Shown one piece after another: positions 13,550 to 26,915 of a DNA stretch of 41,426 nucleotides. The first letter of the stretch is position 1. Each line of letters begins with the position of its first letter. The notes below the pieces were generated by a model that searched no databases, was not told where the DNA came from, and saw only the letters and a list, made by a program, of their open reading frames with translations. Both the position numbers and the translations under genes were made by a program. This stretch comes from a bacterium (GTDB lineage Bacteria; Babelota; Babeliae; Babelales; RVW-14), in assembly GCA_043822925.1 (NCBI GenBank), contig JBDRBF010000032.1, positions 1-41,426 of the forward strand. The letters run 5' to 3'.

Positions 13550-14554
13550 TTACCGTTGCATCGCACGCCGTTCTTTAATAGCTATCTTAAATATTCCAAC
13601 CACAGCCGGAGTTTTTAAGCGATTCACAAACTTTTGCATCGCACGTACTTCGTTTTTTAACTGTTCATATTTAAACTTTAAGCTAAATATCCCATTAAAC
13701 CGATCGTTATAATACCGTCCAAGTGGCGCATATTTAGGATCCTGAAAAAGCGTATCTATAGTAACTTGAAGTGTTTTAACTTGGTCAGCCAAAACAGTAT
13801 TATAAATCTCAAGTTTCTCATTATTCTGTGTTTGCTTTGTACTGGCCGAGTGCTTTAAACATTCTAGCTCGAGATTTAAGAGTTCATATAAATCATTATT
13901 TTTGTAAGCGATTGTAAGCGTTTTCATAAGCTCTTCTTTCACAATCTTTTGCTCACTATTTTGCTCTAAATCAGGGTGCAGCACTCGCGCTAATTGTTTA
14001 TACGTACTATTAATGTTTTGTTTCAGCAACGCTTCAAACTCACTCTTTTTCGATTCTTTTTCACGCTGTTTTTTTGTCTTTTTAGATTCTCGACGAGAAG
14101 ACGCCATCTGATTCTCATCTTCAAAAAGCTCTAATTCAGCGGCAAGAGTCTCGTCGTAATCAACCCCATTAAGATCACTAAAAATTTCTTTTACTTCGAC
14201 TGGGATGTTATACCCATCACCCAGTGAGAAAACAACATTTACCTCGTCCATTACAATTTTTTTTAAATCTTTACGTTCCGCCTTTGAAAAATCTTTTGAA
14301 GTCTTATAAATCTGATAGGCAATCGTTACGCGTTCTATAAAAAGCCCCTGTAAAATAACTTCATCAGGGCGAATTTTTTCATAATAAAACTGCAACGCTA
14401 AATCTAATTCTTGAGTTTTATCTTGTTGCTGCGCTTGAAGAACTTTCATTTTTGCTCTTAATTGATTGAATTTTCTCTGAATAGGCCCTATAGGAGGCTC
14501 TTTTGCTTTTGAGAGAATCAAGTGAAATGTGGGAACCGTCATCGTTTTTTCCAA
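13550..14554 (-). CDS. Coiled-coil protein with internal J-domain-like segment
   Basis: YKQLARVLHPDLEQ..ELMK.L..AY.NNDL (HPD motif). Confidence 0.7.
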   Translation of the reverse strand: MEKTMTVPTFHLILSKAKEPPIGPIQRKFNQLRAKMKVLQAQQQDKTQELDLALQFYYEKIRPDEVILQGLFIERVTIAYQIYKTSKDFSKAERKDLKKIVMDEVNVVFSLGDGYNIPVEVKEIFSDLNGVDYDETLAAELELFEDENQMASSRRESKKTKKQREKESKKSEFEALLKQNINSTYKQLARVLHPDLEQNSEQKIVKEELMKTLTIAYKNNDLYELLNLELECLKHSASTKQTQNNEKLEIYNTVLADQVKTLQVTIDTLFQDPKYAPLGRYYNDRFNGIFSLKFKYEQLKNEVRAMQKFVNRLKTPAVVGIFKIAIKERRAMQR

Positions 14555-16311: not shown

Positions 16312-16423
16312 GAGTTCCTAAAGTTAAAACGTTACTAAAAACACTGATTTTACCGGTTTAATTTAACTTTAGCAAACAACACCCCCGCGTCCCCCAAAAA
16401 GGCGTGCGTTTCAGTTAGACAAC

Positions 16424-16455
16424 AAAAAAGCGCCGAATTTTCATTCGACGCTTTT
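16424..16455 (-). terminator. Original terminator of the tRNA-Val/Asn operon, displaced by island integration
   Basis: Minus strand: ..GGGAGCCA tttaatt aaaagcgtcgaat-gaaa-attcggcgctttttt, directly after the duplicated tRNA 3' end. Confidence 0.7.
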
Positions 16456-16462
16456 AATTAAA

Positions 16463-16573
16463 TGGCTCCCCCTGGCGGACTATCTTAGAACTTTTACGTT
16501 TGAAAACTTCAAAACGCTTGAAATACAAATCATGATTAATAGTCTAAGCGTTGGGCATTCTTCGAACTATTAA
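16463..16573 (+). other. Outer att junction plus start-less recombinase tail WLPLADYLRTFTFENFKTLEIQIMINSLSVGHSSNY*
   Basis: TGGCTCCCC-N5-GGACT shared with the tRNA-Asn end; first 35 bp are 32/35 identical to 18626..18660. Confidence 0.8.
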
Positions 16574-16621
16574 TTGGGCGAGGTTGCAAGAAAGGAAAAA
16601 CAGATTGTTTCGAGAGTAGCT

Positions 16622-16807
16622 ACAAATGATGAGTTTTATTGCCAGTACAACGACCAGCCAAACTCGAGTTTTTGCGTTACAGCCTGAAACGTTTCAATCT
16701 GTATTACAACGAAGTCCGTCCCCATCAGGCTTTGCGTTATTTAACCCCGATGTCTTACTATAAACAATGGGAGGCAGAATAGGCTCATATGTATTGAACC
16801 AGCAAAC
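16622..16807 (+). pseudogene. IS481/IS3-type transposase 3' remnant with probable terminal IR
   Basis: ..DEFY..(frameshift)..FNLYYNEVRPHQALRYLTPMSYYKQWEAE* (YNxxRPHxxLxxxTP motif), stop at 16780-16782, then ctcatatgtattgaaccagc. Confidence 0.7.
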
Positions 16808-16811
16808 TGTA

Positions 16812-16839
16812 TTGACAAAGAATCTCCTTGGCGTATAAT
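16812..16839 (+). promoter_or_regulatory. Consensus sigma70 promoter
   Basis: TTGACA-N16-TATAAT upstream of the MYND gene. Confidence 0.7.
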
Positions 16840-16900
16840 TTCAATTAGGGTTATATTTATGACAGCTGTATTGAATATTAAACAAATGGGGGTTATTTTT

Positions 16901-18091
16901 ATGAAAAACATACCAAAACTTGTAGTACTTTTATTATCAACTCTTTGTGCTATATCAGCGCAAGCGGTTGTGTATAAAACTGAAGTGTATCAAAAAACTC
17001 TTTTAAATGGCACAGTGCGCAAAGTTACCTTATTTTATGATTGGCATGCTGATTATCCCGACCAACGATTGGGCAAACAACAGCAAGCGGCGGTATTGCA
17101 ACAAGCAAAATTAAGTAATGCTCATATATTGGCAGAGGATATGTATACTTATGATGGTAATAATACTCAGATTAGGGATTATTTCAAAAAGCGTAAGCTT
17201 GATTTCCAAAAAGTATGTGATGATTGGAAGACGTATTCCTTACGAGAAGTAATTGAAAAATGCCGTAAACGACATATTTGTCCTGTACAACCCTCAGGTT
17301 CTTTTTTACATCAAATAATAAAAAATGGAAAAGAAAAAAATATACGTTGCTCAAATGTTGAATGTCGGCATTCGTATACTTATTCTATTCTTTCTAAAGA
17401 ATTTTTATCACAATTAAACCGTTCTGCACTATCTTGCTCAGTTGTAATTGACGAAACACAAGAAATTATTAAATATTTTGACGATCGACTCTCTTTAATT
17501 AAAGAAGAAAATTTTGTTAACCCTATGAAAGAACTTCTAACGGAACGTATTACTGGGCGATTTGAGAAATTTAGGGAATTAATTGTAGACCCATTAAAGT
17601 CCATCAATGACTTAGGGTATGACATTAATTCACCTATTTTAGCATCATTTGCAGATCATATGGTTAATTTCAATATTTTATTGAAATTATTTGAAAACGA
17701 GGGTGATCAAGATATTTTTATCTGCGCTGGTGCAAGTCATTTTGAAAGCATTGCTCAGAACTTACCGGGTTCTTTTGGCTATAAATTAGTCTATAAAGAA
17801 GAAGCAGCACCAAATTTTAAGCTGACGTATATCCCGCATCTCGAAGAAGAAGGTATGAGAAAAATACAATCATTTTCGTTACAGCCGTTATTTGATTTTT
17901 TGAACGTAGCGATAGCAAAAGAAGAAGGAAAGTTGCTGACTGATACATGTTGTGAGCATAAGTGTCTCTTTTGCCATGAGCTGGCTAGCTTGCAGTGTTC
18001 GCAATGTAAGAGTGTTTATTATTGTTCAAAGAAATGTCAGAAGCAACATTGGAAAACTCATAAGTTGGTCTGTAAAGAGCCTGTTCATTGA
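16901..18091 (+). CDS. Secreted protein with C-terminal MYND zinc finger
   Basis: Signal peptide ending AQA; CLFC..CSQCKSVYYCSKKCQKQHWKTHKLVC. Confidence 0.88.
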   Translation: MKNIPKLVVLLLSTLCAISAQAVVYKTEVYQKTLLNGTVRKVTLFYDWHADYPDQRLGKQQQAAVLQQAKLSNAHILAEDMYTYDGNNTQIRDYFKKRKLDFQKVCDDWKTYSLREVIEKCRKRHICPVQPSGSFLHQIIKNGKEKNIRCSNVECRHSYTYSILSKEFLSQLNRSALSCSVVIDETQEIIKYFDDRLSLIKEENFVNPMKELLTERITGRFEKFRELIVDPLKSINDLGYDINSPILASFADHMVNFNILLKLFENEGDQDIFICAGASHFESIAQNLPGSFGYKLVYKEEAAPNFKLTYIPHLEEEGMRKIQSFSLQPLFDFLNVAIAKEEGKLLTDTCCEHKCLFCHELASLQCSQCKSVYYCSKKCQKQHWKTHKLVCKEPVH

Positions 18092-18359
18092 CGATGATTC
18101 TGAAAACAAAGCTATTTTACAAGAGAATCAATGGGTTTGGATAAAGCTTTAGTGGGTCTTTTGGGATTGTTGAGATAGAAGATCTAGTTTTGTTATAAGC
18201 ATTGTTTTTTGATATCTGACTTATAATTCGTTGCTATTCTTGTTGCAACCATGGTTAAATAAATGCCCAATAGAAGCACGCGAGATATCTCATGGAATGC
18301 CTGTTAATAGTCAAAGTTTACTTTCTAGTTTGAATTACTGATAGGTTGATGGTTTTATT

Positions 18360-18382
18360 AGGCGGCTTAGCCGCCTTTTTTT
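18360..18382 (+). terminator. Intrinsic terminator
   Basis: aggcggc-tta-gccgcct followed by a T-run. Confidence 0.7.
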
Positions 18383-18625
18383 ATTTGTAATAAACATGGA
18401 GGCAATGGGGCGGGCGGATCAATTTGGCCATGTACCAGATCAGCGCGAAGCGCGACGACTTCATCGTGAAGCGATTGTATTCAATCAAGCGGTCAATCAG
18501 GAAATTACCAAAATTCGCCAAACGCCATGGTATGTTTGGATTGAGCATGGCACAGAATTTTGTAGAAGATTTTTGTTGGGTGATTGTGTGGGAAGGATAC
18601 TGCTGATCAGGGTTTTGAAGAATAG

Positions 18626-18727
18626 TGGCTCCCCCTACGGGACTATCTTAGAACTTTTACCTATAATAACTTTATGCCGAAAAGAATCCAAGAAGTTATT
18701 GGATATATCAGCAGTACAGTAGGTTAA
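18626..18727 (+). other. Inner att junction plus start-less recombinase tail WLPLRDYLRTFTYNNFMPKRIQEVIGYISSTVG*
   Basis: TGGCTCCCC-ctacg-GGACT; open in the WLP frame for 33 codons. Confidence 0.82.
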
Positions 18728-18838
18728 CCGATCAAGTTGATAGCCTTTATTCGTGAAGAAACACTGGAAATGATACAATAATTCCTGTTTTACTGAAATT
18801 GTAGCAAACGATTTAAGACGTAAAAAAGGAGTAATATC

Positions 18839-19969
18839 TTGAAACCAGAAGTCCACTTTGCCTTAAATAATTTAGAAGCCATTTATAAACGATTGATCAC
18901 AATTGATGATCCAGACGTTTTTGCAACCGTCTTAAATGAATTTTACATAGAACTGATTACCGTTTCCAGCCTGGAACAAATGACCCTAGAAATCCAACAA
19001 AAACATGAGCTACTTGTATCGACATTACAAAAACCTAAAAAAGACGCACTTGAAGAAATGGAAAAGAGATTTGTAGAGATAAAAGATTTTGTAAAAAAAG
19101 AGAATATAACGAACGTTCTTTTTTTGGAAACTTTGGCTAAATTTCAAGATCCCTCAGAATACGAATCTGGACTTGTCTGGAATAAATTTATTGCCATGAA
19201 TATGATAATGATTACTTTGTATATGATACCCAAAGGGAAAACCTGTATATATGCGATGAAGCCTGCTGAAATGAAAACTGAGGCCGAAAGTGATATTGAA
19301 AGCTTTAAAACAGAATGTTCTTTACCCCAATATTGGACTTGGCATGAAAAAAAATTGGCTCTTTATTCCACCAATGAAATACGTGAGGGTGAAAGCTTAA
19401 AAAAGATTGAAGATTTTTTTAATTGTTATAGTGTAACCCAATACGAAAAGCACAGAAAAGAGAAAATAAAAAAGGGTCAAAATACCAAACTACTGCACAA
19501 ATGTTATCAATCATTCTCGGTAGGGAAATTTTCAGGTATTCCAAAATCTTATTATGATACAGAATTTGAAGCGCCCAGATCTTTTTTGGTGCAGGAATTT
19601 AAGCAACATGCCGGAAGAGTATTTGGGGCTATACAAAAAATCCTACAACCAAAAAATACGATTGAGTTTCACCGTTCTTCTGGGAAATTTAAATATAACA
19701 ACGAAGAAATAAAATTTAAATTAGAAACCCCTTCATGGACTATTTTAGACCTACTGATAACTAGTAGCGGGCCTAAAAAAAATAAAATTTTAAAAAGTGA
19801 AACTGCTCGCTCTGAAATCTTGAAAAAATACGACCAGAGCAAAGATGATCCTGATATATACGAAATTTGTAGAGCAATAAATAAACGAATTGCCAACTCA
19901 TTTGGGTTAACAAATTTTCTCATTTTCGAGAACGAAACAATACGAATCAACCCATCATATCTAGATTAA
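18839..19969 (+). CDS. Hypothetical protein, possible C-terminal winged helix
   Basis: 376-aa ORF, AAGGAG RBS with TTG start; IYEICRAINKRI..FLIFENETIRINP resembles OmpR-like wHTH. Confidence 0.65.
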   Translation: MKPEVHFALNNLEAIYKRLITIDDPDVFATVLNEFYIELITVSSLEQMTLEIQQKHELLVSTLQKPKKDALEEMEKRFVEIKDFVKKENITNVLFLETLAKFQDPSEYESGLVWNKFIAMNMIMITLYMIPKGKTCIYAMKPAEMKTEAESDIESFKTECSLPQYWTWHEKKLALYSTNEIREGESLKKIEDFFNCYSVTQYEKHRKEKIKKGQNTKLLHKCYQSFSVGKFSGIPKSYYDTEFEAPRSFLVQEFKQHAGRVFGAIQKILQPKNTIEFHRSSGKFKYNNEEIKFKLETPSWTILDLLITSSGPKKNKILKSETARSEILKKYDQSKDDPDIYEICRAINKRIANSFGLTNFLIFENETIRINPSYLD

Positions 19970-20067
19970 TTTCGGACCCGCAGGGGCCCGTTCTTGTATT
20001 GGTAACTTTGTATCTGAAATAGAAACAATACGTTTCTATAAGTTATTAACCTTAAAAGGTAACGACT

Positions 20068-20337
20068 ATGCAGAACAAGGTAACCGAAATTCAAATTATA
20101 CCAATCAAGCCAAAAGATGGTTTGATTGGTATCGCAAGTCTTATTTTCGATAACAATTTTTATTTTGGATCGATAGGTATATACACAAGGCCAAACGGCG
20201 GTTTTAGATTAACCTACCCAACCCGTAAAGTTTTTAACCAAAGCCTTCCTGTTTTCCATCCAATTAACAAAGAGATTGCCAGCACAATAGAAAAGGCAGT
20301 AGTGGAAAAGCTTGAACAGGTGATAAATGGCAAATAG
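20068..20337 (+). CDS. SpoVG-family nucleic-acid-binding protein
   Basis: VTEIQI..GLIGIASLIFDN..IGI..LTYPTRK..FHPINKE..IEKAV. Confidence 0.75.
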   Translation: MQNKVTEIQIIPIKPKDGLIGIASLIFDNNFYFGSIGIYTRPNGGFRLTYPTRKVFNQSLPVFHPINKEIASTIEKAVVEKLEQVINGK

Positions 20338-20521
20338 AAAAAATAGTGATCTTCAAAAAAATCATGACGAAGCAACTTGCGCAGACAAAGATTTAAAGGA
20401 TCATTATCAACCCGTTATCAATTTTTTTGCCTTATTGCTGGAATGGGAGAAGGAAGAAGTACATGAAAAAAATAGAAAAAGTAAAAAAGTTTCGACGCCA
20501 TCACAATACGAGAATCATTAA
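20327..20521 (+). CDS. Small hypothetical protein of the integrative element
   Basis: Overlaps both neighbours in operon fashion; amphipathic VINFFALLLEWEK. Confidence 0.5.
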   Translation: MANRKNSDLQKNHDEATCADKDLKDHYQPVINFFALLLEWEKEEVHEKNRKSKKVSTPSQYENH

Positions 20522-20969
20522 ACATAAGCAGACATACTCAACAGAAGAAATATCACTTCTACTTAACGTTCATCCACAAACAGTTGGCACTTGGCATAAA
20601 TCAGGTCTCAAAAAAATCGACAATAACCAGCCCTATTTGGTTTTTGGACAAGATTTAATCAATTTTATTAACTCAAAAAATAATAGCAGAAAACATCCCT
20701 GCGCTCCGAATGAATTATTTTGCTGCAAATGCCAGAGACCGAGTAAGCCACGAGACAATAGTGTTTGTATCAACGTAACCAGAGCCAGAACCAACATTCT
20801 AGGGTCTTGTGAGACATGTGGCACCAAAATTAATAAAACCATACCTCCCCTTAAAATCAATTCGTACAAGAAAATTTTCATTGTACAAACGGTACACGAA
20901 GAAGATTTAATAGAATGTGCCAACACCTCCGCTATCGCTATTAAAAACAAGAAGGAAATACGTGGCTAA
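20463..20969 (+). CDS. Excisionase/MerR-like HTH protein with Cys4 zinc ribbon
   Basis: YSTEEISLLLNVHPQTVGTW..GL; CCKC...CETC; coupled to the tyrosine recombinase. Confidence 0.75.
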   Translation: MKKIEKVKKFRRHHNTRIIKHKQTYSTEEISLLLNVHPQTVGTWHKSGLKKIDNNQPYLVFGQDLINFINSKNNSRKHPCAPNELFCCKCQRPSKPRDNSVCINVTRARTNILGSCETCGTKINKTIPPLKINSYKKIFIVQTVHEEDLIECANTSAIAIKNKKEIRG

Positions 20970-22056
20970 TTGTAACCCTGAGAACGAGCGAATTAAACGA
21001 CAATATTTTGAATGGGAAAAAGAGGCAAATGGAAAGAGCTTATCTACCGTTAATAACATGCGCAATAACATATATTTGTTTGATGAATTTACAAAATTTA
21101 AAAGCTTTAAACATCTTACCAAAGAAGACGTCATTGCATTTAAAAAATATATCACTCAAAAGAAAAACCAACGAACCAATGAACCTGTAAGTAAAACATA
21201 TTTGCTTCATGTCTCAAAAAGTTTAATCGGTCTTTTTAGGTGGCTTTGTTGTCAGAAAGGATATAAACAAAAGATTCGCCCGGACGATATAAACTACTTT
21301 AAGCTATCAGACAAAGATATTCAAATTGCTAAATCAGCCGCTACGAAGCGGGTTCCAACATTAAATCAACTTGAACTTGTGGTCAAAGGCATGCCATCTG
21401 AAACAGAAATTCAGAAAAGAGATAAAGCCGTATTTGCATTACTTATTCTGACTGGTTGTAGAGTGAAAGCTTTATCATCGCTAAAATTAAAGCATATTTC
21501 TATTGAAGATGAACGTATTGAACAACATCCCCAGGAGGTACAAACAAAATTTGGCAAAAAAATAATTACTTTTTTCTTCCCAATTGAAGGTTGTTTTAAA
21601 AAAATAGTTATAGATTGGGTAATTTTTTTAAAAAATGAAAAGCACTTTGATTACAATGCGCCACTATTTCCAAGCACCAGCCTAACACTTGATAAAAATG
21701 ATCAATTTAGTCGAGAAACACTAGATGTTAAATCATGGCAATCTACAACCTCAATAAGAAACATTGTTAAGCGGGCATTTGAGGCTGCCGGATTACCTTA
21801 CTATAATCCACACTCATTCAGAGACACGTTGGTTAGACATATGTCAAAATTATGCAAATCGCCAGAAGAATTTAAAGCTGTAAGCCAAAATATAGGGCAT
21901 AACAATCCATTAACAACATTTACCAGTTATGGACACATTGAAGAATATAATCAGGGTGAAATAATTAAAAAGCTTGGGCAGGACAAAGAGCAGAATTCTT
22001 TTACAACCAAAGAGATTTCTGAGTTAAAAAAAATGTTGGAACAAAAAAACAGCTAA
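20962..22056 (+). CDS. Tyrosine recombinase/integrase
   Basis: GTG start after AAGAAGGA; LTGCR, TKFGK, HSFR, NIGH..TT..SY catalytic set. Confidence 0.9.
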   Translation: MANCNPENERIKRQYFEWEKEANGKSLSTVNNMRNNIYLFDEFTKFKSFKHLTKEDVIAFKKYITQKKNQRTNEPVSKTYLLHVSKSLIGLFRWLCCQKGYKQKIRPDDINYFKLSDKDIQIAKSAATKRVPTLNQLELVVKGMPSETEIQKRDKAVFALLILTGCRVKALSSLKLKHISIEDERIEQHPQEVQTKFGKKIITFFFPIEGCFKKIVIDWVIFLKNEKHFDYNAPLFPSTSLTLDKNDQFSRETLDVKSWQSTTSIRNIVKRAFEAAGLPYYNPHSFRDTLVRHMSKLCKSPEEFKAVSQNIGHNNPLTTFTSYGHIEEYNQGEIIKKLGQDKEQNSFTTKEISELKKMLEQKNS

Positions 22057-22435
22057 CGCTGGTTATTAAACATCTATACCGCTAGATTTACAGATTTTAC
22101 AAATCAAGCCTATTTCAGATTGAGGCATTTAACATTGATTGTTTGACGTCAGTAACATCAAAGTGAGAGTCAGACAGGTAATGTTAACCAATTAAATTTT
22201 AGAAATATGCTTGATTTTTACCAGAATAAACCAATTTTATTTCAAACTTAAAGACGTATTATCTTGAAGCGACTTAATTATTTCATTTGTAATTAATTAC
22301 CACGATTCAACCCCACCCCATTTGTTAAAGGCGGCTATATAGGGCAGACTTTATATATGAGCTTGATCTAAGCGAGATCAGCCTATCAATTTGGGGATAA
22401 TAGTGTTTCAAAATATTAAATGGGGGCAGAAGCAC

Positions 22436-23830
22436 ATGAAAATTGAATTATTGGGTGGCAAGAACGAGATTGGTGGAAATAAAATACTTGTGGAACACAA
22501 GGGAACAAGAATTCTCTTGGACTTTGGAATGAGTTTTGGGCAATCTGCAAATTTCTTTTCAGAATTTCTTCAACCACGAAAATGTGCTGCTCTTAGCGAC
22601 TTCTTTGAATTAGGGCTTTTGCCTGATATCAAAGGAATTTACCGCAATGATTATTTGAAGCACATGGAAAGGCAAGCAGAGCAAAGAGCCATTGATGCCG
22701 TCTTATTAACACACGCTCATGCTGATCATGCGCAATATATTCATTTCCTTAGGTTCGATATCCCTATATTTTGCACTAAAGCTACGAAAATAATTTTGCA
22801 AACATTGGAAGAAACTGGCAGTAATTCTTGTTCAGATCTTATTACCACATGTGAAGCATTTTCTTTTTATGTAAATAAAAAAGGTGAAAATAGTAGGATA
22901 ACTCGCAAACAAACCGAATACGTCTATTCTAGGGATTACAAAATAATGCAATCTAATGAAAAGGTGCAAATAGGTTCTTTAGAGATTGAAATGGTTGCTG
23001 TTGATCATTCTTTACCAGGTGCTTGCGGATTTATCCTTTATAGCGATGAAGGTAACCTAGTTTATACTGGTGATATTCGTTTTCATGGTTCTCATAGCAA
23101 ATTAAGCAAAAACTTTGTAGAAAAAGCTAGGTCTGTTAAACCAACATGGTTGATTGTAGAGGGGACAAGAATAGATCAAGAAGAAGTACATAGTGAACAT
23201 GAAGTAAAACAAGAAATTACATCACTTATAGAAAAAGCCCAAAATATTGTTTTTGTTGAATTTCCAATACGAGATTTAGATAGAACAAATACAATATACC
23301 AAGCTGCCATAGCTAATAATCGAAAATTTGTTGTAAATCTTAAACTTGCGTATCTCATTGATGCTCTTGGTGATTTGTGTCCATTTAGTTTAGATAATGT
23401 ACAAATACTTGTTCCTAAAAAAAGTTGGGGACTTATTTCTAAGCAGGGAATAGAGCGAAAACAAGTAGAACAAGATTACGATACTTGGGAAAGAAATTAC
23501 ATTTTCCGAAATAATTGCATTACTTATGAAGAGCTTTGCAAAAATCCACAAAAATATGTTGTCACAATGGGTATGTGGGAAATTAATCAACTTACGGATA
23601 TTAAACCCAAAGACGCAATCTGGATAAAATCTTCTTGCGAACCTTTTTGTGAAGAAATGGAGCTTGACGAGGCGCGAAAGAAAAATTGGTTAAACCATTT
23701 TAAGATCCAAGAATTTTTTGCACATGCATCAGGACATGCTTCAGGAAATGAAATTCGAAATATGATAAAAGAAATCAATCCACAAGTGATAATCCCTATT
23801 CATACAGAACATTCAGAAATGTTCGAATGA
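22436..23830 (+). CDS. MBL-fold beta-CASP nuclease (RNase J-like)
   Basis: EIGGN, LDFG, THAHADH, VDHS, YTGD, EGT, HASGHA, PIHTEH. Confidence 0.85.
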   Translation: MKIELLGGKNEIGGNKILVEHKGTRILLDFGMSFGQSANFFSEFLQPRKCAALSDFFELGLLPDIKGIYRNDYLKHMERQAEQRAIDAVLLTHAHADHAQYIHFLRFDIPIFCTKATKIILQTLEETGSNSCSDLITTCEAFSFYVNKKGENSRITRKQTEYVYSRDYKIMQSNEKVQIGSLEIEMVAVDHSLPGACGFILYSDEGNLVYTGDIRFHGSHSKLSKNFVEKARSVKPTWLIVEGTRIDQEEVHSEHEVKQEITSLIEKAQNIVFVEFPIRDLDRTNTIYQAAIANNRKFVVNLKLAYLIDALGDLCPFSLDNVQILVPKKSWGLISKQGIERKQVEQDYDTWERNYIFRNNCITYEELCKNPQKYVVTMGMWEINQLTDIKPKDAIWIKSSCEPFCEEMELDEARKKNWLNHFKIQEFFAHASGHASGNEIRNMIKEINPQVIIPIHTEHSEMFE

Positions 23831-23978
23831 GGCGTTGAGCGACCATCTGCATGGGTGGCACGGTAAAAGCGGCGAAATCAGCAAGACGACATGTAGACCA
23901 AGAACTAACGTTGTAAGTGGGTACTGACGTGGTGGAACTTGGGTTAATTCGTACGCAAGAAGTTAAAAAAGATAGGGA

Positions 23979-24617
23979 GTGATTGTCTTGGAAAAACAGA
24001 ACAAATTGTGTGGGCATCTTTCCCGTAGCGATGTCAGGATTTTAATGCTCAGAATAGCAAGTCTTCCAGAAGAGCAATGTTGGCACCTAACAGATGCGCT
24101 TATAATTTATACGTTATTAAACGAGAATAGTGAATGCTACGAGCAGATTCCTGTTGCTTATAATAAATTAACCCGCAAACAAAAATCCGTTTTTATGGTA
24201 ACTTTTGATGAATATAGAGAAGTTGCTCGCGGCAATGGCTTCCTAGTTAAATATGACTCCATCAGAAGAAAAATGGAAACTAACGCCGAAAGAACATGGC
24301 GTTTGATTTTACTCTATGCCGTTTTTGCGTGTGGAAGCTATCTGTTTATTTTTAATGACTATAAGTCGCTTGTTCCAAAACTAGTTGGAATTATATTTTT
24401 TGTTTTTTATTTGAGTAAAGAGCTTGATTTGAAAATTAAATCTTATCTGCAAGAGACCTTGCTGTTGAGTGATTTTATTCGCTCTTGCAACAATAAACAA
24501 CGTGTAGTTAAAAATATAGAATGGGCTACACAAGTTTTAAGAGAAGCTGGCCTTATAGATGACAATGGACGGAGAAAAGAGAAAGAAGGAGACGATACTT
24601 TTAATTTTTACGTGTAA
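23979..24617 (+). CDS. Hypothetical two-TM membrane protein
   Basis: 212-aa ORF with two hydrophobic segments. Confidence 0.55.
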   Translation: MIVLEKQNKLCGHLSRSDVRILMLRIASLPEEQCWHLTDALIIYTLLNENSECYEQIPVAYNKLTRKQKSVFMVTFDEYREVARGNGFLVKYDSIRRKMETNAERTWRLILLYAVFACGSYLFIFNDYKSLVPKLVGIIFFVFYLSKELDLKIKSYLQETLLLSDFIRSCNNKQRVVKNIEWATQVLREAGLIDDNGRRKEKEGDDTFNFYV

Positions 24618-24883
24618 ACAGGTTCATCTCGCCAAATAGTATCTTCAGCTTTCGCCATTCTGTCGGCATTTTCAGCAACGATAAGAAGCTCTTCTTGAGA
24701 AACCAAATCTCTCATATCGATAACTTTTTTCTCAAGCTTTCTTTGAGCAAAAACTATTTTTTTTTGCACCCTCTTCTTCCAATTAAACCACGCATTTTTC
24801 AAGGCGATCTTCTTAAAGCCTTTCACGACTAAAACTCGCGCTGCTTGTTTTCTGTCGCCAGATTTGGCAGAGCCCAAAAGCAT
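24608..24883 (-). CDS. Hypothetical protein
   Basis: 91-aa ORF filling a gap; no motif. Confidence 0.3.
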   Translation of the reverse strand: MLLGSAKSGDRKQAARVLVVKGFKKIALKNAWFNWKKRVQKKIVFAQRKLEKKVIDMRDLVSQEELLIVAENADRMAKAEDTIWRDEPVYT

Positions 24884-24984
24884 GAAACGCAGGATACTTA
24901 ATAATCCTTATTTCCTTATTTCTTTATATATGGTATAGTCAACCAAAATAACGCCCTCAGAATAACATTTCTCAAAGGAGAACG

Positions 24985-25194
24985 ATGAAAAAGAAAACAG
25001 AAATTACGCTCTCACGCATTACTTTGGATGTCCCAGAGGAAACTCATAAAAAACTTAAAATGATGGCGGCTATCCTGGGTAAAAGCATGCGTGACATTAT
25101 TATCGAGGCGATAGAGGAGCACCTTCATGGCGTTAATTCGCCAAATAAAGATGTAATTAGGGCTATTAAAGTTGCAACCAAAGATAAAAGCTAA
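24985..25194 (+). CDS. Ribbon-helix-helix (CopG/ParG/antitoxin-like) protein
   Basis: RITLDVPEETHKKLKMMAAILGKSMRDIIIEAI; AAGGAG RBS. Confidence 0.8.
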   Translation: MKKKTEITLSRITLDVPEETHKKLKMMAAILGKSMRDIIIEAIEEHLHGVNSPNKDVIRAIKVATKDKS

Positions 25195-25206
25195 TAAGAA
25201 ACAAAA

Positions 25207-26703
25207 ATGAACAAAGCAGTCATCTATGCACGTGTATCGTCCAAAGAGCAAGAAGTAGAAGGCTATTCTATTCCAGCCCAAATAAAATTGCTCAAAGAAT
25301 ATGCCGTCAAAAACAATCTTTCAATTGTTGGTGAATTTATTGACACAGAAACCGCAAAAAAGGCTGGCCGAACTCAATTTACCAGCATGCTCAAATTTTT
25401 AGCAGAAAACAAAACAACGAAAAACCTTTTAGTTGAAAAGACAGACCGCCTACTGCGCAATATCACAGATTATGCCACCATAGACAGGTTAATGGAGCAC
25501 TCAGATATTACTGTTCACTTAGTCAAAGAGAATACATCTTTATACAGAGATTCAAAAACAAACGAAAAGATGTTCTTTGGTTTTAAAGCTGTAATGGCAA
25601 AAGGTTACATTGATAATCTGTCTGACGAAACCAAAAAGGGAATGTTGGAAAAAGCTGAGCAAGGCATATATCCATCAGTAGCTCCTTATGGCTACACAAA
25701 TGAAGCAGAAAAAGATCGAAGAGTAATAAAAGTAGACACTAACGCAGCTCACTTCATAAAAAGAGCGTTTGATTTGTACTTAACCGGAAATTATTCTCTT
25801 AAAACATTGCGAACAGCTCTCTTAGCAGAAGGCATGATATACAGAAACGGTAAAAACTTCCATACAAGCACGCTGGAAATAATTCTCAAGAATGAATTTT
25901 ATACGGGCGCCTTTTACTGGAAGGGCAAAAAATATGAAAACGCATCACATGAACCAATTATCAGCAAAGAATTGTTCAAACGAACACAGGATATTCTCAT
26001 GAAGCCAACCAAAAGCAAATCTCGAAAAGGACTCTTCCCTTACACCAATCTAATCAAATGTGGAGATTGTGGGTGTTTTTTCACCGCTGAGATAAAAAAG
26101 GGCAAGTACATTTACTATCATTGCTCTGGAAGCAAAGGAAAATGCAAACAACCATACATCAAGCAAGAAGTCATTGAAGCAGAGATTGAGAAGATGCTCG
26201 ATAGCATTCATATAACAGAAGAGCAACAAAACCTAATAATACAAAGCCTACGTGAAAGTTTTCAGGATAAAATCGAATTTCACAAAGAAACCGTACAATA
26301 TATCGAGAAGCAGATAAAAGTGCTCCAAAATCGCATAGATCAAACATATATAGATAAGGTAGACGGAAAGATCAGCCAGGAATTTTGGTTTCAGTATAAC
26401 GCTAAGTGGTTGTCCGAAAAAGAAGATCTAACCTCAAAACTCTTAAACGCTCAAAAAGCTGACACATCATTCGTGGAGAACGCGAATTTAATCTTAGAAC
26501 TCGCCAGAAAGGCCTATGGGTTGTTTAAAGTACGAAATGCCGATGAAAAACGTAAACTTGTGAACCTGATAACATCGAACTGCGTTTATAAAGATGGGAA
26601 ACTCGATCTGGAGCTGGCTAAGCCATTTGATATGATCATGGAAACGAGGAAAACTGGAAAATGGCTCCCCGAGCTGGACTCGAACCAGCGACCTAACGAT
26701 TAA
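25207..26703 (+). CDS. Large serine recombinase (resolvase, recombinase, Zn ribbon and coiled-coil domains)
   Basis: YARVSS, DRLLRN, APYGY, CGDCG..YYHC..C; the last 13 aa (WLPELDSNQRPND) are tRNA antisense. Confidence 0.95.
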   Translation: MNKAVIYARVSSKEQEVEGYSIPAQIKLLKEYAVKNNLSIVGEFIDTETAKKAGRTQFTSMLKFLAENKTTKNLLVEKTDRLLRNITDYATIDRLMEHSDITVHLVKENTSLYRDSKTNEKMFFGFKAVMAKGYIDNLSDETKKGMLEKAEQGIYPSVAPYGYTNEAEKDRRVIKVDTNAAHFIKRAFDLYLTGNYSLKTLRTALLAEGMIYRNGKNFHTSTLEIILKNEFYTGAFYWKGKKYENASHEPIISKELFKRTQDILMKPTKSKSRKGLFPYTNLIKCGDCGCFFTAEIKKGKYIYYHCSGSKGKCKQPYIKQEVIEAEIEKMLDSIHITEEQQNLIIQSLRESFQDKIEFHKETVQYIEKQIKVLQNRIDQTYIDKVDGKISQEFWFQYNAKWLSEKEDLTSKLLNAQKADTSFVENANLILELARKAYGLFKVRNADEKRKLVNLITSNCVYKDGKLDLELAKPFDMIMETRKTGKWLPELDSNQRPND

Positions 26704-26737
26704 CAGTCGTGTGCTCTACCAACTGAGCTATCGGGGA
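26662..26737 (-). tRNA. tRNA-Asn (GTT)
   Basis: TCCCCGATAGCTCAGTTGGTAGAGC..CTGTTAA..GGTTCGAGTCC..GGGGAGCCA, 76 nt with encoded CCA. Confidence 0.96.
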
Positions 26738-26751
26738 GTGATTTCAAATTA

Positions 26752-26828
26752 TGGTGGGCGAAACAGGATTCGAACCTGTGACCCCCTGCTTGTAAGGCAG
26801 GTGCTCTAACCAGCTGAGCTATTCGCCC
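26752..26828 (-). tRNA. tRNA-Val (TAC)
   Basis: GGGCGAATAGCTCAGCTGGTTAGAGC..CTTACAA..GGTTCGAATCC..TTCGCCCACCA. Confidence 0.96.
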
Positions 26829-26886
26829 CATTCAAGAGGTGCCTAAAAGATTTATTTCTATTCGTATCGGCCTCTAGACCGTCAAA

Positions 26887-26915
26887 AGGTTAAATGATTT
26901 TTTATCTTAAGTCAA
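26887..26915 (-). promoter_or_regulatory. tRNA operon promoter
   Basis: TTGACT-N17-TAACCT on the minus strand. Confidence 0.6.

Follow-up and report, generated by a model that had tools for sequence, protein, structure and literature searches.

An integrative element at a tRNA-Asn gene of a Babelota bacterium, with a probable attP site inside the gene of its own large serine integrase

Serine integrases are the main tools for the insertion of large DNA, and the control of their direction is under active structural study. In phiC31, Bxb1, and A118/LI, the attachment site of the element (attP) lies outside the integrase open reading frame (ORF), and the targets are protein-coding genes. The closest precedents for the locus described here are, going by the available excerpts of the sources, myxophage Mx8 and mycobacteriophage BPs, both of which are tyrosine-integrase systems. 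In Mx8 (IntP/IntX), attP is described as lying inside the int coding sequence, and integration gives the gene a new 3' end; the altered enzyme is active, with changed properties (PMC6070905, citing Tojo 1996 and Magrini 1999). In BPs, attP is described as lying inside the repressor ORF, and integration removes the C-terminal 33 residues, an ssrA-like tag, changing stability and activity (PMC4557955). Serine recombinases have been recorded at tRNA genes: phiRSM enters a tRNA-Ser gene with a 13 bp core, its Int being of the small resolvase/invertase type and its attP lying between two genes (PMC4471427), and serine recombinases of Mycobacterium AICEs (integrative, conjugative elements of actinomycetes) use tRNA-Leu; the 2011 survey that names phiRSM and the Mycobacterium elements calls such integration rare (PMC3218068). 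An attP inside a recombinase gene is not reported in the available parts of these last two papers and, by a search listing, the word 'tRNA' does not occur in the text of a large survey of large serine recombinases (LSRs) (PMC10083194). Here, we analyze a stretch of 41,426 nt from a bacterium of the Babelota (GenBank assembly GCA_043822925.1, contig JBDRBF010000032.1; hereafter the window), in which an LSR gene runs into the 3' end of a tRNA-Asn gene. We propose, with a probability of about 0.8, that an 8036-bp integrative element (18626-26661) was inserted at this 3' end by its own LSR, with attP inside the integrase gene.

The integrase, its tRNA-Asn target, and the att-like sites

The features that bear on this reading are the following (positions of the window).

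25207..26703, + strand: LSR in its integrated form, 498 aa (Pfam domains, structural matches)
26662..26737, - strand: intact tRNA-Asn(GTT), the target gene (attB B' arm; ARAGORN)
26752..26828, - strand: tRNA-Val(TAC), upstream neighbor in the tRNA cluster (ARAGORN)
26640..26661, + strand: likely attP P arm in integrase codons (..AAA ACT GGA AAA before TGG; third-position conservation)
26662..26670, + strand: attR core TGGCTCCCC, covering the CCA, the discriminator base, and 5 acceptor-stem nt of tRNA-Asn, read W-L-P
18626..18634, + strand: inner attL core TGGCTCCCC, left end of the 8036-bp element (exact repeat)
18626..18727, + strand: spare tail 1, 33 start-less codons and a stop, beginning WLPLRDYLRTFTYNNF (W-frame translation, tail model)
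16463..16471, + strand: outer attL core TGGCTCCCC, left end of tier 2 (exact repeat; its flank is joined to the tRNA in a metagenome contig)
16463..16573, + strand: spare tail 2, 36 start-less codons and a stop, beginning WLPLADYLRTFTFENF (W-frame translation, tail model)
16463..18625, no strand: tier 2, 2163 bp between two att-like sites, without an integrase (gene content)
16426..16455, - strand: terminator-like hairpin, 13-pair stem and a T run (hairpin search)

An earlier reading made from the letters of the window alone (hereafter the sequence-only reading) had taken the recombinase for a serine integrase, and this identity is borne out by a domain order typical of LSRs: a Resolvase domain (PF00239, E = 5.5e-26, residues 4-153), a Recombinase domain (PF07508, E = 1.1e-17), and a Zn_ribbon_recom domain (PF13408, E = 6.5e-13), all identified with Pfam. 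Residues R9, S11, and S12 of the catalytic Arg/Ser motif, as well as C285, C288, C306, and C313 of the zinc ribbon, are invariant across homologues, and the coiled-coil insertion is represented by two helices predicted by AlphaFold (353-385 and 391-442). An AlphaFold model of a relative gives full-length matches to chains of att-bound LSRs solved by cryo-electron microscopy (cryo-EM; E = 7.6e-18); the best structural matches are 9dxd, 9rah, 9iu2, and 4kis, and the top fold matches are cryo-EM entries released in 2026. The C-terminal module (residues 445-513) is extra and matches no solved sequence. AlphaFold models the free-form tail as two helices (486-495 and 500-512; predicted local distance difference test, pLDDT, 68-74) and the integrated form as coil at 484-498, with pLDDT <50 at 488-498. 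No second LSR copy was found in the window's genome.

The LSR ORF (25207-26703) ends in RKTGKWLPELDSNQRPND and overlaps the tRNA-Asn gene (26662-26737, - strand); its last 13 codons (residues 486-498) are the antisense of the tRNA. Because tRNA-Asn lies on the - strand, its encoded CCA end appears on the + strand as the TGG at 26662, and codons 486-488 form the core. The pattern TGGCTCCCC-N5-GGACT (TGGCTCCCCNNNNNGGACT) has exact + strand matches at 16463, 18626, and 26662 only in the whole window, against an expectation of 0 (none matched in 100 shuffles). Behind the copies at 18626 and 16463, the W frame gives two start-less tails: spare tail 1 reads WLPLRDYLRTFTYNNFMPKRIQEVIGYISSTVG (33 aa; stop at 18725-18727), and spare tail 2 reads WLPLADYLRTFTFENFKTLEIQIMINSLSVGHSSNY (36 aa; stop at 16571-16573). 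The two tails resemble each other, differ at the majority of positions beyond residue 16, and have different end points; they match a hidden Markov model (HMM) of such tails with E = 2e-13 (spare tail 1) and 4.9e-13 (spare tail 2), values that are not independent, as both are among the 13 sequences that built the model. The first ~33 nt of spare tail 1 double as the P' arm of attP (GAC-TAT-CTT-AGA-ACT-TTT). A TAG stop immediately precedes W at 18626, where the sequence to the left is unlike the integrase 3' end; before 16463 the W frame is open for 30 codons, yet shows no resemblance to the integrase. The antisense ending of the recombinase, the three core copies, and the two mutually homologous start-less tails had all been described in the sequence-only reading and stand as described.

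On the reading proposed here, the P arm of attP would consist of the ..K-T-G-K codons of the integrase gene, exchange would take place in TGGCTCCCC (antisense of the CCA end plus 6 nt, W-L-P), and the P' arm would be the next ~8 codons (L-x-D-Y-L-R-T-F). Integration would sever the integrase gene behind W-L-P. On the attR side, tRNA antisense would supply the last 10 residues of a 498-aa enzyme, whose tail is predicted to be disordered, and the native 33-codon tail would stay behind at attL, 8 kb off, with no start codon; an enzyme of 518 aa would be restored by excision. The lengths and circle sizes given earlier are arithmetically correct: W is residue 486, so that the two tails give 518 aa (485+33) and 521 aa (485+36), and the circles would be of 8036 bp (26662-18626) and 10199 bp (26662-16463), respectively. 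Tier 2, with its homologous 36-codon tail, would be the remnant of tandem accretion at the same site.

Junction evidence was taken from Logan contigs of four public metagenome runs (X1-X4), which are not raw reads and in which rare forms are dropped. The empty site, for which the sequence-only reading had suggested a search, was found in one contig of X2 (depth 3; shorter side of 41 letters) that joins ~16455 to ~26659, skipping 10203 letters with 5 letters between; allowing for a one-base flank difference, it places tRNA-Asn immediately beside the left flank and contains neither tier. Run X2 also holds perfect pieces of the element. Because this contig joins the left flank to the tRNA, the exchange lies in or beside TGGCTCCCC (or in AAATGGCTCCCC at the outer site), which agrees with the crossover within the core codons that had been suggested; any exchange point within AAATGGCTCCCC yields the same protein. 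The exchange position, in LSRs a central dinucleotide, is bounded to the identity of 9-12 bp (9 bp of core, or 12 bp counting the flanking AAA at the outer site). A dyad reading centers just outside the core, and the AAAA(C/G)T motifs on the outer sides of the two arms (P and P') center at +10/+11, just beyond the shared core, where attB differs. Among related loci (designated by L numbers), the same Val-Asn tRNA pair is present in L006, L007, L008, L011, and L248; in L248, where the PepA next door is 74% identical, the pair is unoccupied.

The strong hairpin at 16455-16426 would directly follow tRNA-Asn in the empty site, closing the tRNA-Val/Asn cluster, and now lies 10.2 kb from the tRNA. 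A search for terminator-like sites on the - strand of 24800-26900 found only 25279-25260, near the integrase start, and none from the tRNA to that point. With the terminator displaced and none between the tRNA and 25279 (-), antisense read-through is possible, and tRNA transcripts may run into the integrase gene.

Free and integrated forms among related integrases

In the 120 best database homologues (55-76% identity), sorted by a simple classification of their tails, the bodies are near-identical up to the conserved W and divergent thereafter. Tails resembling tRNA antisense (e.g., WLPEQDSNLRQND, WCARQDSNLRPTD, WRPQGDLNPCFRRERAMS) end 43 of the 120, and a stop falls within five residues of W in 49; tails of the type W..L.D..RT.., 22-36 residues long, occur in 13, and partial or other tails in 15. 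Free and integrated forms thus encode different C termini (13 free-type vs. 92 short or tRNA-antisense tails). The sequence-only reading had named the absence of DYLRTF-type tails from free homologues as grounds for abandoning it; such tails are present in these 13 homologues and in a circular relative, L096.

L096 is a metagenome contig of 9811 bp with a 127-bp terminal direct overlap, which makes it circular at 9.7 kb. The ORF of its integrase (513 aa, 59% identical) crosses the site without a break and continues into the tail WCALQDFLRNLIIDDGTMFAIKQFVMAA. Also encoded on L096 are a SpoVG-like gene, a primase zinc-ribbon/Toprim ORF across the contig ends, and a 613-aa primase-polymerase-like protein; this element may replicate autonomously besides integrating. 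The ORF of L324 is likewise uninterrupted across the site, and this locus is a free form. In L176, the integrated integrase stops at NWCAR in tRNA-Arg, and the start-less WCALSEYLRNFNSDMSTMFAVKSLVASA follows the same 10-nt core 10.7 kb upstream; the L176 tail was used in building the tail HMM, so its score is not independent, and the site was found separately by the 10-nt core repeat. Start-less W-frame matches to the HMM lie upstream of the integrated integrases of L182 and L241 (E = 0.0053 each), L174 (0.026), and L188 (0.061), with a marginal match at L160 (E = 3.8). Core repeats of at least 10 nt marked the far end in only 4 of 57 loci with enough upstream DNA, one of them a self-match; the tail HMM found more. 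A region-restricted protein search with the tail of P0080, the closest free relative, returned P0080 itself only.

An antisense tRNA stands at the end of all of the first 10 genome loci, with the W codon on the CCA end (WLP for Asn, WRP for Glu). The wider set comprises 192 loci from genome, metagenome, and viral collections, with slight redundancy in the counts, as a few loci duplicate one contig. In 130 of them, a gene for a tRNA or for tmRNA was called in antisense at the ORF end: Asn (58), Gln (24), Arg (14), Glu (9), Asp (9), Ala (4), Ser (3), tmRNA (2), Pro (2), His (2), and Leu, Ile, and Trp (1 each), that is, 12 amino-acid specificities plus tmRNA in all. Six further ORFs run off their contig, and 56 loci are without a call, many of them still with tRNA-like tails. 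Judged by these gene ends, the attP-in-gene trait is shared by hundreds of LSRs from many phyla, a large clade whose targets are the 3' ends of tmRNA and of numerous tRNA genes.

Record titles of the loci name Dependentiae, Coxiellaceae, Legionella, Mesorhizobium, Rhodopseudomonas, Caulobacter, Sphingomonas, Acidobacteriota, Omnitrophota, Melainabacteria, and others, and labels on the closest integrase loci read Dependentiae, Babeliales, Coxiellaceae, or Gammaproteobacteria. Some match is present in 12 of 31 genomes (the window's own and 30 relatives), with close matches in two relatives only; this patchy presence fits a mobile element. Viral contigs hold only more distant relatives (<=46% identity), with the same free/integrated split. 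In a viral sub-family (41-46% identity; L018, L020-L024, and L090 vs. L026 and L153), the split is one base out of register, at ..N-G-G: the free tails read ..KP.LEP.QFIYKLK.ALSQEFI..LKALDLAA and the integrated ones ..NGGTDEARTRDL.., and tRNA-Asp was called in L153.

Constraint on the tail and competing explanations

The first ~11 residues of the tail overlap the P' arm and, judging from codon conservation, appear to be dual-coded, the L.DYLRTF motif being probably in large part a binding site written in codons. On the P side, third-position information is 2.00, 1.58, and 1.79 bits at the codons that stand fourth, third, and second from W (nt -12 to -4), and 0.06-1.44 bits in the 16 codons farther upstream (30 unique sequences). 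This block and the conserved start of the tail stand where the P and P' arms would be expected. Further along the tail, the pattern is that of a peptide. A scan of 185,579 species genomes for the motif TGGCTCCCNYTNNNNGACNNNNTTAGAAC, in which ~2 chance matches would be expected by a rough estimate, yielded 72 sites distributed over 70 loci, among them Patescibacteria and Legionella as well as bins labelled archaeal. At the 68 sites with sufficient sequence, the W frame remains open beyond codon 11 for a median of 21 codons, as against 9.5 and 7 for the two alternative frames, and 10 open codons are reached at 57 sites in the W frame vs. 34 and 31 (Wilcoxon p = 0.0014 and 0.0024). In the subgroup RT.[DN]W..I[KR].[DE]L (23 members), the first, second, and third positions of codons 14-24 carry ~0.45, 0.69, and 0.30 bits (averaged by hand from tabulated values); position 2 is thus the most conserved and position 3 the least, with synonymous Leu and Ile codons. 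Because the W frame stays open and coding-type periodicity persists beyond ~codon 11, the tail beyond the P' arm is, by this signature, selected as a peptide. Total tail lengths cluster at 26-38 residues, a range that includes the 33 and 36 residues of the window.

Many of the pattern sites are orphan remnants, so that the open-frame signal records selection in the past and would, if biased, be too low. The candidate use of all 72 sites as proven island ends was rejected, since 70 lack a cognate LSR nearby; of the other two, L324 is the free form mentioned above, and the LSR downstream in L326 ends in tRNA-Gln and is not cognate. L259 and L286 come from bins labelled archaeal, and L301 from a bin labelled Nanoarchaeia (bin labels as given).

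Several observations weigh against the proposed element and its tail exchange. The empty site is a single contig of depth 3, possibly from a strain that never held the element, and a circle junction of 26661 to 18626 or 16463 was found in none of the contigs of X1-X4, which alone are uninformative on excision. At 70 of the 72 pattern sites, the fetched 8 kb contains no cognate LSR, and 14 sites lie 0.5-5.5 kb from a tRNA-Asn with neither an adjacent LSR nor a P arm (L271, L317, L307, L308, L321, L289, L325, L310, and six more); these 14 could be what is left of lost islands, or else miniature elements without an integrase. The attL and attR sites of serine integrases are normally inert, with which a tandem array built by such an enzyme does not readily fit. 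Moreover, the integrated-form tails of the 120 homologues are 2 to ~20 arbitrary residues, and in 11 tails from hosts of differing base composition the third positions of GAC-nAT-yTT-AGA-ACT-TwT are kept (GAC 10/11, AGA 9/11, ACT 7/11). Because third codon positions are conserved too, conservation of the tail start is explicable by DNA-site constraint alone; and because the integrated form must still excise, catalysis itself does not require the tail, and the enzyme must tolerate its loss at least for excision.

The tail exchange could therefore be real and yet functionless, attP simply overlapping the gene end, with the tail start conserved as an integrase binding site and the rest dispensable; we place this a little short of an even chance. 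Conserved third positions in both arms and the arbitrary ends of integrated enzymes fit it, as do the two tails of the window, with their divergence beyond residue 16 and their different ends, and the spread of Asn-type tail lengths (12-62 aa). It accounts less well for a W frame open about twice as long as the other frames, for the coding periodicity with synonymous Leu and Ile codons beyond the P' arm, for the motifs and end points that sub-families keep as their own (e.g., ..IKQLLxA in the 512-aa class), and for the helical prediction, itself of moderate confidence. That the change of tail alters the activity, direction, or stability of the enzyme is our tentative suggestion, somewhat less likely than the functionless overlap; the tail may favor integration, restrain excision, or set the lifetime of the protein. 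More doubtful is a fuller scheme, a state sensor, in which the full-length enzyme with its ~30-residue helical tail would exist only on the circle and drive integration, integration would delete the tail and change direction, activity, or lifetime, and the terminator-less tRNA operon would be read antisense into the integrase gene. It is improbable that the free-form tail is an ssrA-like degradation tag whose removal by integration stabilizes the enzyme, as with the BPs repressor. Such a role has the BPs precedent, as far as that source is available (PMC4557955), and many free tails do end in Ala (LLYA, LVFA, LLFA, LLIA, VMAA), as do tails on viral contigs (LDLAA, FDFAA, EKAA, KKCA), several of which come from near-identical contigs. 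The window tails end in ..STVG and ..HSSNY, P0080 ends in F, and Ala ends only 9 of 70 complete Asn-type tails; an ssrA-like Ala end was accordingly rejected for the window (ends G and Y) and for the Asn type, although a tag of this kind would suit the sub-families whose tails close with ..LAA or ..LLxA.

Two further alternatives concern the element as a whole. Insertion by the tyrosine recombinase encoded within the element (20917-22056) rather than by the LSR is hardly credible, even though tyrosine integrases usually target tRNA 3' ends and serine-recombinase integration at tRNA genes is called rare in the available text of the 2011 survey (PMC3218068): in 130 of the 192 loci it is the LSR gene that terminates precisely at the tRNA end, whereas the tyrosine recombinase occurs in no more than 8 loci and is missing from circular L096, its gene sits mid-element, 4.6 kb from the tRNA, and the repeat is of 9 bp, with no long copy of the tRNA 3' end. 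It is also very unlikely that the tandem arrangement is an assembly artefact merging strains with different inserts at one tRNA. The window's genome is fragmented (86 contigs), and run X2 holds occupied and empty forms; against this, X1 Logan contigs span both inner junctions mismatch-free (16422-17723 and 18546-19515), although X1 may be the sample behind the window assembly and its contigs are then not independent support, and two tandem tail sites are also present in L295 (4372, 5765) and L301 (5523, 7946), 1.4 and 2.4 kb apart.

Gene content, tier 2, and relation to known systems

Besides the LSR, the 8036-bp element and tier 2 encode the following.

18839..19969, + strand: cargo ORF, 376 aa (no match in Pfam, PHROGs, or related loci)
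20068..20337, + strand: SpoVG-like gene, 89 aa (PF04026, E = 1.5e-9)
20427..20969, + strand: protein of 180 aa, weakly matching a helix-turn-helix (HTH_17, E = 0.0085, short of the Pfam cutoff)
20917..22056, + strand: tyrosine recombinase, 379 aa, mid-element (PF00589; phrog_1)
22391..23830, + strand: metallo-beta-lactamase-fold hydrolase with an RMMBL domain, 479 aa, cargo (Pfam, PHROGs)
23979..24617, + strand: ORF of 212 aa with no family match (Pfam, PHROGs)
16633..16779, + strand: rve_3 C-terminal fragment of an insertion sequence transposase, in tier 2 (E = 4.4e-7; stops upstream)
16859..18091, + strand: MYND-finger ORF, 410 aa, in tier 2 (C-terminal PF01753, E = 2.5e-8; hydrophobic N-terminus)

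LSRs integrate with no cofactor and need a directionality factor to excise. The SpoVG-like gene, which has homologues in 11 related loci (L182, L181, L174, L176, L186, L096, L183, L009, L112, L120, and L217), is a candidate accessory or directionality factor, and the weak helix-turn-helix gene is likewise only a candidate accessory factor. The latter has homologues in L182, L003, and L123; it overlaps the tyrosine recombinase gene (20427-22056), homologues of which occur in 8 related loci, and the pair recurs in L182, L003, and L123. Outside the element, a 334-aa ORF (13550-14554, - strand) contains ..RVLHPDL.., which we take to resemble the HPD motif of J domains.

For tier 2, the sequence-only reading held in part: the second tail is present, but its 2.2-kb segment is not a second working element, containing an insertion sequence fragment and the MYND gene without an integrase. 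The rve_3 fragment is a dead insertion sequence. The MYND-finger protein has no relative among the other loci; MYND fingers are mostly eukaryotic and are seen in effectors of amoeba-associated bacteria. Tier 2 as a whole looks like a decayed or cis-mobilisable accretion.

If the proposed reading is correct, an LSR clade with attP in its own coding sequence, losing a conserved tail on integration, would carry a second, gene-encoded layer of control; should the change of tail matter, the integrase gene would be a record of the free vs. the integrated state, and under the state-sensor scheme directionality would be partly written in DNA topology, on top of the usual directionality factor. Natural targets would be readable from the last codons of the enzymes (WLP for Asn, WCA for Arg, WRP for Glu), and the clade would supply natural serine integrases aimed at tRNA 3' ends. 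For annotation, integrase ORFs that run into tRNA genes and their variable ends would be explained, and start-less tails would mark the far ends of islands. The view of tRNA targeting by serine recombinases as rare, taken from the available part of the survey (PMC3218068), would change. In the literature searched, which was partial for subscription journals, no description of an LSR with attP in its own gene was found, although an earlier description is possible.

Set beside known systems, the integrase shares its LSR domain order and structural matches, and apparently a short att identity, with phiC31, Bxb1, and A118/LI, and differs from them in its attP within the ORF, its tRNA 3' target, and its extra C-terminal module (445-513). 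Like phiRSM and the Mycobacterium AICEs, as far as the accessible accounts describe them, it is a serine recombinase at a tRNA gene with a short core. Unlike in the classical tRNA islands of tyrosine integrases, the LSR adjoins the tRNA and only 9 nt are duplicated. Streptococcal integrative and conjugative elements show tandem accretion and cis-mobilisable segments at att sites, by means of tyrosine integrases with reusable attL and attR; an integrase-less, att-flanked segment beside a complete element is common to both, whereas the integrase here is a serine recombinase. The presence of attP within an ORF and the loss of a C terminus on integration recall BPs as described in the excerpts available, but BPs rewrites its repressor via a tyrosine integrase, and the window's tails are without an ssrA-like tag. 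With Mx8, on the portion of the account available, the locus has in common an attP within the integrase coding sequence and a gene end replaced on integration; unlike the tyrosine recombinase of Mx8, the enzyme here is a serine recombinase, ~30 residues are replaced, and the trait is clade-wide.

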